64,000 nt of DNA from a virus (Duplodnaviria; Heunggongvirae; Uroviricota; Caudoviricetes). Location of the stretch: IMG/VR virus record IMGVR_UViG_3300043418_000226; one strand, written 5' to 3'. The notes under the pieces were generated by a model. The model saw only the letters and a program-made list of their open reading frames with translations. It was not told the origin of the DNA and made no database searches. The first letter of the stretch is position 1. The number at the start of each line of letters is the position of its first letter. The position numbers and the translations under genes were made by a program. This document shows, one piece after another, positions 36,240-39,571 of this stretch.

Positions 36240-36361
36240 TGAGTTACGGGGGATTCGAACCATATGTATCATTACTGCAGTTTTGATAACACTTACTAAC
36301 CTCAGTCTTTCGACACCTGACTTACCGGCAGGCCCTGATTCCCTCATCAGATAGGTAACTC
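36240..36361 (-). other. tRNA-like element of atypical length (~121 nt)
   Basis: complementary termini GAGTTAC/GTAACTC and a GGTTCGAATCC T-loop-like segment; the interior cannot be folded as a standard cloverleaf. Confidence 0.3.
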
Positions 36362-36378
36362 ATTTTAATTAATAATTG

Positions 36379-36460
36379 TGGGAGTAGTAGGACTCGAACC
36401 TACGAACTCGAAAGAGGGAAGATTTACAGTCTTCTGCAATTGCCGCTATGCGATACTCCC
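36379..36460 (-). tRNA. tRNA-Tyr(GTA): tRNA-Tyr (GUA)
   Basis: acceptor GGGAGTA/TACTCCC, loop CT-GTA-AA, long variable arm. Confidence 0.8.
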
Positions 36461-36654
36461 ATATCAAAGTTTAACTCAGTTTTTAGACCGCTATTAATAC
36501 CTTTTACCTTTACTCTCAAATTACTTCGATACAGGAATCGAACCTGCGTTTGGACCGTCATCCCGTAGTGCCACTCTACTAATCTTTTCATTTTACCCTC
36601 AAGAGATAACTTTCGTCTGTCATCGTATTCAACCTTATATAGTTAAACTTTTTG

Positions 36655-36726
36655 CTGGCCCGGTAGGAATCGAACCTACATAAGTTGATTAACAGTCAAC
36701 CGTAATAACCCTTATACGACAGGCCA
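36655..36726 (-). tRNA. tRNA-Asn(GTT): tRNA-Asn (GUU)
   Basis: stem GTTGA/TCAAC, loop CT-GTT-AA, T-arm GTAGGTTCGATTCCTAC. Confidence 0.75.
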
Positions 36727-36733
36727 ATTTCAG

Positions 36734-36813
36734 TACCCAAGGTCGGACTCGAACCGACACGCCCTTCGACACGGTTTCTAAGACCGCTGTGTATACCATT
36801 CCACCACTCGGGT
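36734..36813 (-). tRNA. tRNA-Leu(TAG): tRNA-Leu (UAG)
   Basis: acceptor ACCCGAG/CTTGGGT, loop CT-TAG-AA, extended variable arm. Confidence 0.75.
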
Positions 36814-36882
36814 ATGTACGGGTCTCTCCCCGTTAGTCACCCTCCACTGTTTTGTATACATTTTGGTCGTGGAATTGGTTGA

Positions 36883-37413
36883 TCACCATTTCTTATTTTT
36901 AATAAAATTATTTCTATATTCATCTATCGCACCGATTACTTCATTTTCATATCTTGAATGAACATATTGGTGGTGTGTTGGGCATAACGGTATTAAATTT
37001 TTTGGCTCGTTATTATTATGATTTTTATCATAATGATGAACGGTAACTATTTTATTTTCACCGCAAATGACACATTCTTTGTTATGATAGTTGAAACAAG
37101 TGCTTCTATAACTGTCATCTTTCCAATTGGGATTTGCCGTCCCACTTCTAAAATAAGTGTTAGAACAAGAATATGAACAAGTTGTTTTTTCTTCTTTATT
37201 ACCTACTTTTGTTTCAAATTGATTACCACAAATAGGACATTTTTTTAATACTTTCTCATATTTTGATGGTTTTGATTTAAGATGGTCAATGTTTATTTTA
37301 TTTTCAATTACGAAGTTTTTAAATTTTAATTGGGTTCTACCATTATAATACCCGTATATTTTTTTAATTGCTTCTGACTTTGTTTTTGATGTTTTTATTA
37401 TTTCTCTTTCCAT
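36883..37413 (-). CDS. HNH homing endonuclease
   Basis: Cys-rich zinc-finger region and HHYDKNHNNNEPKNLIPLCPTHHQYVH HNH motif. Confidence 0.75.
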   Translation of the reverse strand: MEREIIKTSKTKSEAIKKIYGYYNGRTQLKFKNFVIENKINIDHLKSKPSKYEKVLKKCPICGNQFETKVGNKEEKTTCSYSCSNTYFRSGTANPNWKDDSYRSTCFNYHNKECVICGENKIVTVHHYDKNHNNNEPKNLIPLCPTHHQYVHSRYENEVIGAIDEYRNNFIKNKKW

Positions 37414-37476
37414 AATAATAAATACATTAAAATGTCGTAAAAGTAAAGTTTGACCAAAACTTTTATTTACGATTTG

Positions 37477-37548
37477 TCAGGGTAGTAAGAGTTGAACTTA
37501 CCGCTTCCTGCGTCCAAGGCAGGCTTCTCACCCCGAGAATATACCCTG
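37477..37548 (-). tRNA. tRNA-Pro(TGG): tRNA-Pro (UGG)
   Basis: acceptor CAGGGTA/TACCCTG, stem CCTGC/GCAGG, loop CT-TGG-AC. Confidence 0.8.
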
Positions 37549-37556
37549 TTTTTATG

Positions 37557-37630
37557 TGATCCCATCAGGAGTCGAACCTGAAACCTACACATTAGAAGTG
37601 TGTTGCTCTATCCAATTGAGCTATGGAACC
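37557..37630 (-). tRNA. tRNA-Arg(TCT): tRNA-Arg (UCU)
   Basis: D-arm GCTCAATTGGATAGAGC, loop CT-TCT-AA. Confidence 0.8.
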
Positions 37631-37676
37631 AAATACACTTCCTCTTATACGCGAGTATAGTGTGAACTAAGCTTCG

Positions 37677-37761
37677 TACCGGAGGTGGGACTCGAACCCA
37701 CACGAGGATTTCTCCCCAACAGAGTTTAAGCCTGTCATGTCTACCATTCCATCACCCCGGC
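37677..37761 (-). tRNA. tRNA-Leu(TAA): tRNA-Leu (UAA)
   Basis: acceptor GCCGGGG/CTCCGGT, loop CT-TAA-AC, long variable arm. Confidence 0.8.
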
Positions 37762-37821
37762 GATTATTTCCACAATATCAAAGAACTACGATACAAATGT
37801 AATGCAAAAATTCTAATAAAA

Positions 37822-37860
37822 CAAAAAACCCGAACATTTTTTAATTTGTTCGGGTTTGTA
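37822..37860. terminator. bidirectional terminator hairpin
   Basis: AAAAAA-CCCGAACA..TGTTCGGG-TTT. Confidence 0.5.
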
Positions 37861-38046
37861 TAATGATTTAATTAAATTTTAAGTCATAGTATCCGAACAC
37901 AAATTACTAGGTTGCACACCTCTTCCGTTCCCATTATATAACGGGTTTAAACTAAGTGATATGTTATTTATATTCTTCATCTTCCTAATAAGTATATAGA
38001 AATATACAAAAGTTTTATTTAAAAACAAAATATATTTCAATTTTTT

Positions 38047-38253
38047 TTAATATTTTCCTAATCTAAAGTAAGGAATGTACGTTTTTCCTCTCCTTGTTTT
38101 TTGTTTAAGGCTTGGATATTTTTGAAAATAGTATTTCTTTGGTTGATTTTGGTGAATCCACAATCTTCGTTCGTATATTGTTAATATTGTCGGCACCACC
38201 AAACAACTACTCATTAACACCATAACAATTAATAATGCAATTAATTTTTTCAT
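38047..38253 (-). CDS. small putative membrane or lipoprotein
   Basis: 68-aa ORF with hydrophobic N-terminus and SSC motif. Confidence 0.35.
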   Translation of the reverse strand: MKKLIALLIVMVLMSSCLVVPTILTIYERRLWIHQNQPKKYYFQKYPSLKQKTRRGKTYIPYFRLGKY

Positions 38254-38268
38254 TTTACAAAACGTTAG

Positions 38269-38340
38269 TAGCCCTGCCGGGAGTCGAACCCGACTTTCCA
38301 GGATGAAAACCTGGCGACCTAACCGATAGTCGACAGGGCC
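38269..38340 (-). tRNA. tRNA-Glu(TTC): tRNA-Glu (UUC)
   Basis: acceptor GGCCCTG/CAGGGCT, stem CCAGG/CCTGG, loop TT-TTC-AT. Confidence 0.75.
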
Positions 38341-38544
38341 AATTCGGGACCAGATTAGGTATCTCTTTATGTCCCTACTTTTTCAATCGTTTGAGTTTCA
38401 TATTAACGTCCGGAAACTCCTTCGGTAAGGAACAGGACTGGATAGTTTTAACCGTCAACTCCAGAAGGGAATGATTTACATTACTTTAAGTTTTACGTCT
38501 ATAAAGTTAACTCACAAACGGGAGCAATATAAAAAGACGACCTG

Positions 38545-38631
38545 TAATCAGAACAGGATTCGAACCTGTGTGTGGTGAACCGTGTAATTACTTACACGTC
38601 TTACCATGCGTTTCCACTCCGCCATCCAATT
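38545..38631 (-). tRNA. class-II-like tRNA (87 nt), anticodon unresolved
   Basis: acceptor AATTGGA/TCTGATT, D-arm GCG-GAGTGGAAA-CGC, T-arm ACAGGTTCGAATCCTGT, central hairpin CGTGT-AAGTAATT-ACACG with an 8-nt loop. Confidence 0.4.
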
Positions 38632-38906
38632 AAATAAGCCCGTCTTTCCGAGCTGTCATCGTTTCGTAAATTTTCCTCATAGGTAAACATCTAACGACAA
38701 TATGTTAATTGTCTCCTCATTTTTTGGTACCTACAGTGATTTCTCACTCAAAAAACTTAAAGGTCAACATAAAATGTTTAAATCTAAATTCCGAACCACT
38801 TAGTTTGTTCCTGTAAAAATTAACTTAACACAATTAAATGTGCTGTTCCGTAATTGTCACAAAGAGTAATTTAGATACTAAATCACCCTAAATGTCGTCG
38901 AATTGC

Positions 38907-38991
38907 GGAGGATGTAGGATTCGAACCTACGGTACCTTGCAGTACAACAGTTTTCAAGACTGCCGCGATCGACCACTCTGCCAATCCTCCA
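38907..38991 (-). tRNA. tRNA-Ser(TGA): tRNA-Ser (UGA)
   Basis: acceptor GGAGGAT/ATCCTCC, loop CT-TGA-AA, long variable arm. Confidence 0.8.
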
Positions 38992-39199
38992 ATTGTCCCC
39001 GATGAGATTATTTCGAGGTAGATATCCACAGTTTTTCGTCTTGAAAAACCCAACGCGTCTTACCGCTTAAAAAGTCAAACATACTCGGTGGTTTTGTTAC
39101 GACCATATTTCCGAGACCCCCTCTATAAAATCGTGGAAGGACACAACTACATCATTATTTCGAACGATGCTAAATCATTGAGTATCTCTAACTCATTTG

Positions 39200-39272
39200 C
39201 GGGACTGACGGGAGTTGAACCCGCTCCGTGCGCCGTGACAGGGCGACATCTTAACCGTTTGACCTCAATCCC
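39200..39272 (-). tRNA. tRNA-Asp(GTC): tRNA-Asp (GUC)
   Basis: 73 nt; acceptor GGGATTG/CAGTCCC, loop CT-GTC-AC. Confidence 0.75.
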
Positions 39273-39374
39273 ATTAAAAAAAGAATCTCGACCACCATTT
39301 CAGTATTTCTACGTGCTTTCAACTTGATATGAACGTTACAACAAGTTGGTGGAGTCAGCCTCTACTAAGATTCT

Positions 39375-39415
39375 TTTTACAAAGATAATAATTTATTTTT
39401 AATAAACAAAATTAT
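39375..39415 (-). promoter_or_regulatory. Bacteroidetes-type promoter module
   Basis: CTTTTTACAAAGATAATAATTTATTTTTAATAAACAAAATTA; reverse complement gives TTTG, a 19-nt spacer, then TATCTTTG. Confidence 0.65.
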
Positions 39416-39427
39416 TTCACTTTATTT

Positions 39428-39522
39428 GTTGATTAAGACCAGATTCGAACCGTCAACCTGTTTCCCCTTTCTACGTTAATACCATATACTCCGTTCTACT
39501 GTGCCCTCTACACTATAATCAA
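39428..39522 (-). other. tRNA-like element (95 nt) with perfect 7-bp acceptor pairing
   Basis: TTGATTA/TAATCAA termini, D-stem GTG/CAC, T-loop TTCGAAT; the anticodon region does not fold canonically. Confidence 0.35.
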
Positions 39523-39571
39523 TCGGAAGTTTCGAACCTTCCATACATAAGGTAATTAATCTTATGTTTTG

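Follow-up and report, generated by a model that had tools for sequence, protein, structure and literature searches.

Conserved tRNA-shaped RNAs with replaced or altered anticodon arms in the tRNA island of an uncultivated phage

Introduction

The species 1 and species 2 RNAs of phage T4 (rnaC, rnaD) are stable molecules of about 120-140 nt which lie inside a tRNA cluster, are co-transcribed with the tRNAs and carry tRNA-like 3' acceptor/T-arm features that allow their release by tRNA-processing enzymes. The elements described here resemble them as putative small stable RNAs within a phage tRNA cluster, no sequence relationship being expected. To our knowledge, the T4 RNAs have not been described as a constant frame with variable inserts, nor with two 5' hairpins such as those of the element called E4 below. 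The TMERs of Murid herpesvirus 68 are viral tRNA-like RNAs fused to pre-miRNA hairpins, transcribed by Pol III and processed by RNase Z. Both in TMERs and in E4 a tRNA-like module, as a likely processing handle, is joined to small-RNA hairpins, but TMERs come from a eukaryotic virus and carry the hairpins 3' of the tRNA-like part, whereas those of E4 are 5' and no miRNA pathway is involved. YrlA and other bacterial Y RNA-like RNAs, together with the tRNA-like domain of tmRNA, are comparable as non-decoding mimics of the acceptor/T/D elbow that carry another module. In YrlA the free ends lie at the stem replacing the anticodon arm, and tmRNA has no D-stem and carries an ORF; E1 to E4 are unlike both and leave both Rfam models unmatched.

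GOLLD and ROOL are structured RNAs of 400-800 nt found in phage tRNA islands, sometimes with embedded or adjacent tRNAs (PMC12286853). They share this niche with E1 to E4, and GOLLD is encoded in the same window, but the folds are unrelated: E1 to E4 are tRNA-derived, measure 87-190 nt and have no Rfam match to GOLLD or ROOL. Two laboratory constructs come close in design. In the engineered tRNA scaffold for recombinant RNA expression (cited in PMC3753655) the frame provides processing and stability, and a minimalist tRNA-Leu without anticodon and variable arms is, as cited in a later paper, leucylated as long as A73 and the D/T interaction are preserved (Larkin 2002, via PMC9976931). Both resemble the E3 family in keeping acceptor, D and T arms while structured RNA replaces the anticodon arm; the E3 family differs in being natural, multi-copy and phage-encoded.

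The window, by which we mean the whole stretch of 64,000 nucleotides analysed (IMG/VR record IMGVR_UViG_3300043418_000226), is the tRNA island of a phage that is large, uncultivated and low in GC, and also encodes SmpB and tmRNA. An earlier note had singled out five elements of its tRNA array, here E1 to E5, as atypical or degenerate tRNAs. Comparison with related contigs indicates that the odd pieces are not broken tRNAs but several conserved, apparently undescribed families of tRNA-shaped RNAs.

Results

All five elements lie on the minus strand, at the coordinates given by the earlier note. The canonical tRNAs of the array, as called by ARAGORN and Rfam, cover all 20 amino acids, so that the odd elements are not needed for decoding. 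Default ARAGORN missed two further tRNAs, one for Asp (anticodon GUC, 39199-39272) and an unusual one with CAU (40016-40092); it did call a CUA suppressor tRNA, and the window gives no sign of stop-codon recoding. The only match of RF00023/YrlA type is the true tmRNA at 27271-27679. The array itself contains an HNH endonuclease gene, and no protein genes are commoner in these islands than those for HNH and GIY-YIG endonucleases. The only protein families that consistently co-occur with the RNAs are homing endonucleases and a PF04308 RNase H-like protein, the latter without a copy in the window.

A Bacteroidota-type promoter motif, TTTG-N-TAnnTTTG, which belongs to repeat family D11, occurs 14 times in the window against 4.7 expected (14 or more in 0 of 100 shuffles). 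One predicted promoter of this type (39380-39410, minus strand) lies directly 3' of E4, which makes E4 the final gene of its unit; the order is promoter (39949-39979), Met, a 152-nt RNA, Thr and E4.

The relatives compared are all metagenomic contigs of uncultivated origin. All five elements are kept in independent viral contigs, where compensatory base changes are seen, which is more than chance. The tRNA-shaped families without an anticodon arm, or with a replaced one, recur in hundreds of uncultivated phage genomes. No match to the elements was found among GenBank phages or, with one exception, among GTDB genomes, and E1 to E4 matched no Rfam family other than tRNA. The threshold of the Rfam tRNA model (RF00005, 29 bits) was passed by E3 (37.5 bits) and E5 (57.3 bits), and E1, E2 and E4 gave no match to it. 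A 7-bp covarying acceptor, a D-loop GG and a T-loop UUCRANY occur together in E1, E3 and E4. A canonical anticodon arm of 5 bp and 7 nt is absent from E1 (9-nt loop), E2 (4 bp with a tetraloop), E3 (34-nt insert) and E4 (irregular domain); against the canonical loop with U33 and purine 37, E5 has a 7-nt loop but C37.

E4 had been read as two adjacent elements, a 95-nt tRNA-like piece (39428-39522) and a mini-element (39523-39571); both parts are present and the acceptor is indeed perfect, but they form one RNA of 144/145 nt (39428-39571, minus strand). Its 5' end is a CAAA linker (39571-39568), followed by two hairpins: H1, with a stem at 39567-39561/39551-39545 and a 9-nt loop AUUAAUUAC (39560-39552), and the T-arm-like H2, GGAAG-GUUCGAAA-CUUCC (39542-39525). 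The tRNA-like body comprises the acceptor strands UUGAUUA (39522-39516) and UAAUCAA (39435-39429), a D-arm (39513-39501), a central domain GAACGGAGUA-hairpin-GAAAGGGGA (39500-39455), a T-arm GACGG-UUCGAAU-CUgGUC with a 5-bp stem and one bulged G (39454-39437), and a C as discriminator (39428), with no recognisable identity set. The anticodon position is taken by this irregular domain, which varies in length. A covariance model (CM R1) finds a single copy in the window (141 bits) and exactly one per locus at about 80 viral loci among IMG/VR contigs (97-165 bits), and a 20-nt signature matches 83 IMG/VR contigs. In an alignment of 31 sequences 94.7% of paired cells are complementary, against 31-49% when partners are slid, and 17 of the 31 pairs show double, compensatory changes (0 of 500 shuffles). 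The H1 and H2 loops are invariant and the GAACGGAGUA and GAAAGGGGA strands conserved. In the homologue of contig L021 a promoter stands directly 5' of H1. Even at E<=10, E4 has no Rfam match.

E3 (38545-38631, minus strand) is 87 nt long with acceptor, D-arm and T-arm, as first described, but its hairpin is better drawn with a 7-bp stem and a GUAA tetraloop than with an 8-nt loop. The frame is of tRNA-Leu type, with acceptor AAUUGGA/UCUGAUU, D-arm GCGG-AGUGGAA-ACGC, T-arm ACAGG-UUCGAAU-CCUGU and discriminator A (A73); in place of the anticodon arm it carries a 34-nt insert (38606-38573) in which a UGGU/ACCA stem and an internal loop precede that hairpin. ARAGORN detects E3 in pseudogene mode only, where it posits a 6-nt 'intron' that is not plausible. 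Comparison of the window with L003 and L001 shows covariation in the acceptor, and an orthologue in L069 has the same insert inside a standard AGUCGGG/CCUGACU frame. Judged from these sequences, E3 is a divergent representative of a very large family with a constant tRNA-Leu-like acceptor/D/T set and no anticodon, in which hypervariable structured inserts replace the anticodon and variable arms. We counted 190 unique elements on more than 120 contigs, with up to 11 per locus in tandem arrays. In an unbiased test the acceptor was paired at 7/7 positions in 60 of 69 frames. Inserts range from 17 to 95 nt; 83 of them fall into 71 clusters, and orthologous inserts that differ by compensatory changes are found on different contigs. 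ARAGORN calls just 36 of the 190 elements, with 26 different and inconsistent 'anticodons'.

The frame D-arm, GGCGGAAUGGUAGACGC, is of tRNA-Leu type, and the 5' half of the frame has a 96% match in a tRNA-Leu annotated in Arthrobacter phage Atuin. LeuRS recognises an identity set made up of A73, G18G19, A14 and the Levitt pair A15:U48, and does not need the anticodon and variable arms (PMC9976931); the tertiary elements looked for in a LeuRS substrate were A15:U48, G18G19, A14/U8 and A20a. A73 is kept in 171, A15:U48 in 147 and A14 in 164 of the 190 frames; the window copy has G15:C48 instead of the family pair. Because the frame largely retains this set, E3-type RNAs may also be leucylated.

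E1 (36240-36361, minus strand) had been thought to have complementary termini but an unfoldable interior. The termini, GAGUUAC/GUAACUC, do form a 7-bp acceptor (36361-36355/36247-36241), and the interior folds, once relatives are used, into a class-II-like cloverleaf of 122 nt with A as discriminator (36240). It has a 6-bp D-stem, a 5-bp stem at the 'anticodon' position with a 9-nt loop CCGGUAAGU (36328-36320), a 3-bp variable-arm hairpin GUC-GAAA-GAC, and a 38-nt insertion (36299-36262), a hairpin of roughly 40 nt, which would split the 5' strand of the T-stem. GG-UUCGAAU-CCCCC follows, with the T-loop UUCGAAU at 36259-36253; without the assumption of a split stem the T-stem would have no more than 2 bp, and the split stem is invariant and hence without covariation. 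Every helix is kept through compensatory changes in four lineages (window/L001, L193, L025 and L055-type), the relatives of E1, like those of E2, being mostly close, which leaves few independent lineages. No Rfam model matched E1 or E2 at E<=1 in the region 26000-44000.

E2 (36521-36600) possesses the D-arm, T-arm and half-paired acceptor reported for it, but is no stand-alone truncated pseudo-tRNA; it is the apical, tRNA-elbow-like core of a conserved RNA of roughly 190 nt (36461-36653, minus strand) between tRNA-Asn and tRNA-Tyr. The core consists of a D-arm-like GUAG/CUAC, a mini-hairpin GGAU-GACG-GUCC of 4 bp and a T-arm-like GCAGG-UUCGAUU-CCUGU. The 'acceptor' has 3 pairs only and runs on into the long irregular stem formed by the flanks. 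The region, flanks included, is 94-98% conserved in L001-L003, among which an A-U pair of the mini-hairpin becomes G-C. In the distant L019 and L025 the flanks and hairpin positions are kept and the D/T sequences are not. Conservation is higher in the flanks than in the core, the long-range stem covaries, and RNAalifold counts 13 of 45 pairs as compensatory. RNase P-type processing of E2 is doubtful, since the long stem fills the acceptor position and leaves no free ends there.

Several described classes were rejected. The proposal of intron-containing tRNAs, of the bacterial group I or the archaeal bulge-helix-bulge (BHB) kind, finds no support, as the inserts of 17-95 nt are too short for a group I intron (at least about 200 nt), excision would leave no anticodon stem-loop, and neither an Rfam intron family nor a credible ARAGORN -i call was obtained. 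Self-cleaving ribozymes (HDV-like 'theta', hammerhead, hatchet, pistol, twister) gave no Rfam match at E<=1 over 26000-44000, nor for E4 at E<=10, and a CUGAUGA...GAAA string in E1 that recalls a hammerhead core is part of the covarying D-stem and the variable-arm loop. Mimics of tmRNA or YrlA are excluded for E1 to E4, which have free ends at the acceptor stem and no ORF. Allo-tRNAs and tRNA-Sec-like forms (8/4, 9/3, 8/5) have an acceptor-T branch of 12-13 bp with a longer acceptor stem, a long variable arm and a functional anticodon loop. The long D-stem and the variable arm are all that E1 has in common with them; its acceptor has 7 bp, and positions 8-9 are unpaired with the CCC preceding the 3' strand.

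Discussion

Taken together, the data make it probable that E1 to E4 are true genes whose products are stable, non-decoding RNAs derived from tRNAs, of at least four families and processed like tRNAs, in which a tRNA frame carries other modules. E1, E3 and E4 keep the covarying acceptor stem and the elbow of D-loop GG and T-loop UUCGAAU, and the anticodon arm is replaced by a structured module in E2, E3 and E4 and altered, with an extra arm, in E1. The elements would be transcribed with adjacent tRNAs from island promoters and presumably excised by RNase P and RNase Z or exonucleases, and the tRNA frame would stabilise the product. The non-tRNA modules, namely the hypervariable inserts of the E3 family and, in E4, the invariant H1/H2 loops and the AGUA/GAA purine-rich internal loop, may then do the work by binding partners. 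Of the four options in the earlier note, that of tRNA-derived regulatory RNAs is the one supported, insofar as these appear to be conserved, structured, non-decoding RNAs; any regulatory role is putative.

Alternatively, though improbably, the elements would be cis-acting punctuation only, tRNA-shaped signals for RNase P/Z cleavage, for definition of mRNA or tRNA ends or for 3' end protection, the excised RNA itself having no role. Mitochondria offer well-known cases of such tRNA-like punctuation; E4 is followed by the next promoter with no other element between them, and E1 stops 13 nt short of the start codon of a 252-aa ORF, a place taken by tRNA-Tyr in L003. Punctuation would not account, however, for the invariant loops and conserved central strands of E4, for conservation of the 9-nt loop in E1, for hundreds of distinct structured inserts that are conserved between contigs or for the tandem arrays of up to 11 frames.

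A still less probable account makes the elements real but unusual decoders, with introns or expanded anticodon loops reading quadruplet, frameshift or stop codons. It draws on E1, whose 5-bp stem is at the canonical position, whose 9-nt loop follows the consensus C-S-S-GUAA-N-U and so contains GUA, and which often follows tRNA-Tyr (every E1-bearing genome also has a normal tRNA-Tyr), as well as on the CUA suppressor tRNA and on C37 in E5. In E2, E3 and E4, however, the anticodon position lacks a 5-bp stem with a loop of 7-9 nt, and in relatives this region ranges from a GNRA-capped mini-hairpin to multi-hairpin domains of 95 nt. The 26 ARAGORN anticodons for one frame are spurious, no intron is predicted, and the window shows neither recoding nor an uncovered amino acid. 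The option of frameshift or nonstandard decoding put forward in the earlier note accordingly lapses for E2, E3 and E4 and is kept for E1 and for the tRNA-Glu with pyrimidine 37.

That the elements are functionless decaying pseudo-tRNAs or scars of homing endonucleases and tRNA-tRNA recombination is very improbable: the endonuclease genes of the islands, the presence/absence indel of E1 (139 nt flanked by the 5-nt microhomology CACAA in L003, which lacks it), the resemblance of H1-H2 to an anticodon arm and T-arm minus an acceptor strand and the loss of tRNA-like features of E2 in distant relatives would suit such an origin, but neutral remnants would not persist as one copy in each of about 80 divergent contigs while retaining invariant loops and covarying stems, as E4 does, nor would one expect covarying stems in E1 and E3, 99% identity of E1 in L001 against 81% for the adjacent gene, or 190 different structured inserts set in one constant frame.

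If the elements are indeed tRNA-derived RNA genes, a bolder and rather doubtful idea is that phage tRNA islands encode a natural 'tRNA-scaffold' system, in which arrays of anticodon-less tRNA-Leu frames, still processable and possibly leucylatable, each display a different RNA module. Were this so, the modules could form an RNA arsenal, for example of decoys that resemble aptamers and are aimed at host defence or translation factors; E4, which is single-copy, and the E1 RNA would be conserved companions, and the window elements the first described members.

E5 (41406-41480, minus strand) stands apart. Listed as a fold failure, this second tRNA-Glu(UUC) is called as a normal tRNA by both ARAGORN and Rfam, and its 3' CCA is encoded; the C noted at position 37 is there, in the loop CUUUCCA. 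Relatives have U37 (CUUUCUA), so that a pyrimidine is conserved in the lineage, and other Glu tRNAs have A37. Changes in the anticodon loop of phage tRNAs have been proposed as an escape from host anticodon nucleases (PMC10264068), and the pyrimidine 37 of E5, by its sequence a working tRNA-Glu, fits this idea.

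Atypical elements of the tRNA array

In the window, ARAGORN identified one tmRNA and 26 tRNAs. All of them are encoded by the minus strand, and the main array spans 34710-41824. Five elements of this array, E1 (36240-36361), E2 (36521-36600), E3 (38545-38631), E4 (39428-39571) and E5 (41406-41480), had been singled out in an earlier note as atypical or degenerate tRNA-like sequences; all five lie on the minus strand and carry the features described. E1, E2 and E4 are indeed not folded as tRNAs by automated tools. E3 is a partial case, since it passes the Rfam tRNA threshold (37.5 bits) and is reported by ARAGORN in pseudogene mode only, with a 6-nt 'intron'. 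Judging from sequence comparison, the best-supported reading of E1-E4 is that of stable, processed, tRNA-framed RNAs carrying effector modules.

A single RNA with two 5' hairpins

The earlier note had divided E4 into a 95-nt element and a 49-nt mini-element, but the two are always found together and in the same order in related IMG/VR contigs, and E4 thus appears to be a single RNA, whose signature AGGTTCGAAACTNNCGATTG matches 83 IMG/VR viral contigs. From 5' to 3', it starts with a CAAA linker, a first hairpin (H1), CUG, a second hairpin (H2) and CGA, followed by a tRNA-like body. In H1 the stem is 6-7 bp long and free in sequence, and the loop has 9 nt, A(G/U)UAAUUA(A/C); H2 is a T-arm look-alike, GNNAG-GUUCGAAA-CUNNC. 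The body begins with an acceptor strand UUGNNUA and a D-arm GUGU-AAUGGY-GCAC. A central domain that varies and a T-arm follow; after a single additional nucleotide come the 3' strand of the acceptor and a discriminator C. The T-arm of the window copy, which had looked degenerate, has a 5-bp stem from which a single G bulges. The common form of the central domain is G-x-R-GAACGGAGUA-(hairpin)-GAAAGGGGA-N-y-C, in which x and y covary, and its AGUA and GAA strands may resemble a loop-E/bulged-G motif; other family members carry a plain long stem in its place.

On an alignment of 31 sequences, 94.7% of the cells of this structure are paired and both sides have changed in 17 of 31 pairs; none of 500 shuffles reached the observed pairing, and slid partners paired in only 31-49% of cells. 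With a covariance model made from these sequences, the window yielded a single copy (141 bits), and each of about 80 loci likewise yielded one (97-165 bits). Seventeen of 18 pattern matches in GTDB were due to chance, and the model confirmed only the remaining one, on a 1.5-kb MAG contig. E4 had no match in GenBank phages or in a permissive Rfam search with E4 alone. In the related locus L021, a promoter stands directly 5' of H1 of the E4 homologue, so that the hairpins would be part of the E4 RNA.

The second, weak match of the model in the window (22.9 bits) is a tRNA-Gln with two leader hairpins (34874-34968, minus strand), and in another match H1-H2 line up with the anticodon and T arms of a tRNA lying upstream. 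Because of these matches, we suggest that H1 and H2 descend from a truncated upstream tRNA. The tRNA-Gln leader has the layout CAAA-hairpin-CUG-hairpin, as in H1-H2, and its spacer is 94-97% conserved in relatives. Pairing of the H1 loop with the E4 acceptor strand was also considered and discarded, as covariation is absent.

A tRNA-Leu-like frame with diverse inserts

In relatives of E3, the acceptor covaries (AAUUGGA/UCUGAUU, AAUUAGG/CCUGAUU, GAUCAGG/CCUGAUU) and the interior ranges between 34 and about 70 nt in length. When the T-arm was searched together with a complementary acceptor, a family emerged that has a near-constant frame, AGUCAGG-UG-GCGGAAU(U)GGUAGACGC ... U-ACAGGUUCGAAUCCUGU-CCUGACU-A, around inserts of 17-95 nt. 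The exact 3' part of the frame occurs in at least 120 viral contigs, and full elements, 61-182 nt long, number at least 190 unique sequences, with at least seven copies in 5 kb (L235) and at least 11 in one locus (L063). Of 69 D-arm/T-arm combinations collected with no requirement for acceptor pairing, 60 nevertheless had a 7/7 acceptor. Clustering of 83 inserts at 60% identity gave 71 clusters; even so, the same types of insert reappear in different contigs, their hairpins bearing compensatory changes. The window E3 insert is also found in locus L069, there inside the standard frame, and E3 therefore belongs with this family, whose frame has no relative in GenBank phages. Among the matches listed, ARAGORN calls only 36 of 190 elements, with 26 different 'anticodons'.

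The D-arm of the frame is of tRNA-Leu type, and its 5' half matches the annotated tRNA-Leu of Arthrobacter phage Atuin. In E. coli the leucine determinants are A73, A15:U48 and A14, and charging persists in a tRNA-Leu stripped of its anticodon and variable arms (PMC9976931). Since the frame keeps these determinants (A73 in 171, A15:U48 in 147 and A14 in 164 of 190 elements, among the matches listed), leucine charging of E3-type RNAs is plausible, and these features predict charging without decoding. With hundreds of different inserts set in a constant tRNA-Leu frame, the family is a natural counterpart of the engineered tRNA scaffold.

Folds of E1 and E2

The interior of E1, described earlier as impossible to fold into a standard cloverleaf, can be folded with the help of relatives in four lineages. 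The fold combines a 7-bp acceptor with a D-stem of 5-6 bp that has a GG loop and with a 5-bp stem whose 9-nt loop, C-S-S-GUAA-N-U, is conserved. Next come a variable-arm hairpin of 3-4 bp, an insertion of 38-43 nt folded into a covarying hairpin of its own, and GG-UUCGAAU-CCCCY. Pairs were counted on a manual segmentation, as the MAFFT alignment misplaced stems. A 5-bp T-stem might form, but only if the AGG before the insertion joins the GG after it, a stem that is invariant. E1 is 99% identical in L001 (81% for the adjacent gene) and absent from L003, where a 139-nt indel is flanked by CACAA. It stands after tRNA-Tyr or tRNA-Met, and all E1 genomes have a normal tRNA-Tyr. Decoding through the expanded loop of E1 is conceivable. 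The pattern CCGGTAANTCAGNNGTC was unspecific (120 contigs, mostly irrelevant), with one new member in L193. A hammerhead ribozyme (CUGAUGA...GAAA) was rejected: the string belongs to the D-stem, which covaries, and to the tetraloop of the variable arm, and Rfam gave no match.

E2 had been taken for a truncated pseudo-tRNA. The 193-nt interval between tRNA-Asn and tRNA-Tyr that holds it is 94-98% conserved throughout, with an A-U pair exchanged for G-C in the mini-hairpin; the more distant loci L019 and L025 keep the flanks and the positions of the hairpins but not the D-arm and T-arm sequences. In the RNAalifold structure, the flanks pair into a long irregular stem topped by a three-hairpin tRNA-like core, with 13 of 45 pairs compensatory. 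From flank conservation and this long stem, E2 is predicted to be the core of a larger RNA rather than a truncated tRNA. The motif ACGATGACAG, 5' of E2 and E3, is not enriched (7 versus 5.65 expected).

Conserved inter-tRNA spacers

The 152-nt 'spacer' between tRNA-Met and tRNA-Thr (39645-39796, minus strand) is a structured RNA conserved across more than 25 viral loci, with invariant blocks GUCGACAA and UUAAGAUUGGAGCGAGACGGGUACUCCA, 18 of 26 predicted pairs compensatory on 17 sequences, and no Rfam match. Three other minus-strand spacers are conserved and likely to be additional undescribed RNAs: 38991-39198 (208 nt, more than 20 loci), 38341-38544 (204 nt, about 8 loci; after E3 here and after E4 in other phages) and 38632-38904 (273 nt, close relatives). 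The leader of about 100 nt of tRNA-Asp (39273-39379, minus strand) lies downstream of a promoter (39380-39410); about 11 bp join its two ends (AAAAAGAAUCU...AGAUUCUUUUU), and it is related to the tRNA-Met leader at 39870-39945, with the motif UGUAACGUUCAUA common to both. A UAAUUA/AGUAAU loop motif may be common to E1, E3 and E4, although it stands in differing registers and in an AT-rich genome.

Possible functions and alternatives

Stable RNAs would be released from the polycistronic transcripts of the island by the tRNA-processing machinery, the tRNA frame serving as a handle and the added modules as effectors. Three of the four readings proposed in the earlier note fit less well. Pseudogenes or scars of endonuclease activity are made unlikely by conservation and covariation, by the single-copy status of E4 and by the constant frame that the E3 family keeps around diverse structured inserts; nonstandard decoding by E2-E4 is opposed by the absence of an anticodon loop. 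Intron-containing tRNAs are disfavoured by the insert sizes and by an anticodon arm that cannot be restored.

The nearest parallels are the species 1 and 2 RNAs of T4, engineered tRNA scaffolds, the minimalist tRNA-Leu, herpesviral TMERs and tRNA mimics such as YrlA and tmRNA; the E1-E4 RNAs belong to none of these families. Full-text literature searches turned up no account of these families, which may nevertheless be present, unnamed, in the Fremin 2023 catalogue of about 10,000 viral candidate RNAs (PMC10690425). Apart from chance matches, permissive Rfam scans of 26000-44000 and of E4 by itself gave tRNA, tmRNA and GOLLD only. ORF clusters of 91 loci searched for a protein partner gave only homing endonucleases, unknowns and a PF04308 RNase H-like protein, present in 15 related loci and absent from the window.

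Annotations usually present a phage tRNA island as a list of tRNAs with 'spacers' between them; here, the misfits of the array and several spacers are conserved structured RNAs. If expressed, they would represent a new layer of RNA-based phage functions beside GOLLD and ROOL, and ready-made, evolution-tested scaffolds for RNA display; automated tRNA counts would then be contaminated by non-decoders, as one frame read with 26 'anticodons' illustrates.

Genomic setting of the island

The permissive Rfam scan of 26000-44000 adds two minus-strand tRNAs overlooked by default ARAGORN, tRNA-Asp(GUC) at 39199-39272 (50 bits) and an odd tRNA(CAU) at 40016-40092 (33 bits). The latter has ends pairable over 8-9 bp (UUGCGAGAU/AUCUCGCAA) and no clear D-stem; a related CAU tRNA stands after E4 in many other contigs. 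Once tRNA-Asp(GUC) is counted, every one of the 20 amino acids has a canonical tRNA, and no odd element is required to complete the set. The same scan adds a full-length GOLLD RNA (29671-30059, minus strand; RF02032, 273 bits), and the island therefore also carries a known giant ornate RNA, directly abutting the 5' side of tRNA-Met(CAU) (29580-29664, minus strand). A tRNA with anticodon CUA (30846-30919, minus strand), an amber suppressor labelled 'Pyl' by ARAGORN, is also present; TAG recoding is not indicated by the ORFs of the window, as TAG ends 3 of 45 long ORFs and reading it as sense adds little. The tmRNA (27271-27679, minus strand; tag ATSNVAVV*) and SmpB (33798-34229, minus strand; Pfam 2.8e-43) occur as a pair in relatives too, with the tag ATSEVAVA*.

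Neighbouring genes encode a T4-type terminase, a ClpB-like ATPase, SmpB, an HNH homing endonuclease inside the array (36883-37413, minus strand), glycosyltransferases and a SusC/TonB-like receptor, a neighbourhood that would mark the source as a large phage. GIY-YIG and HNH endonucleases are the commonest island proteins in related loci. Single tRNAs excepted, no DNA-level relative of the region was found among GenBank phages. Window GC is 32.7%, and matches to the Bacteroidota promoter consensus TTTG-N17-21-TAnnTTTG number 14 (4.7 expected), apparently splitting the array into several minus-strand transcription units. Together with the receptor gene (6979-9612, plus strand; CarboxypepD_reg, Plug and beta-barrel domains), these promoters hint at a Bacteroidota host. 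The receptor is an unusual auxiliary gene in an otherwise phage-looking genome.

E5, the second Glu tRNA, has the C37 noted earlier (loop CUUUCCA) and is not degenerate, being called a normal tRNA-Glu(UUC) by the tools. Its relatives have CUUUCUA, so a pyrimidine at position 37 appears to be a conserved trait of this second copy; the first tRNA-Glu copy and other Glu tRNAs have A37. Anticodon-loop changes have been proposed to let phage tRNAs evade anticodon nucleases (PMC10264068), a proposal with which the pyrimidine 37 of E5 would be consistent.
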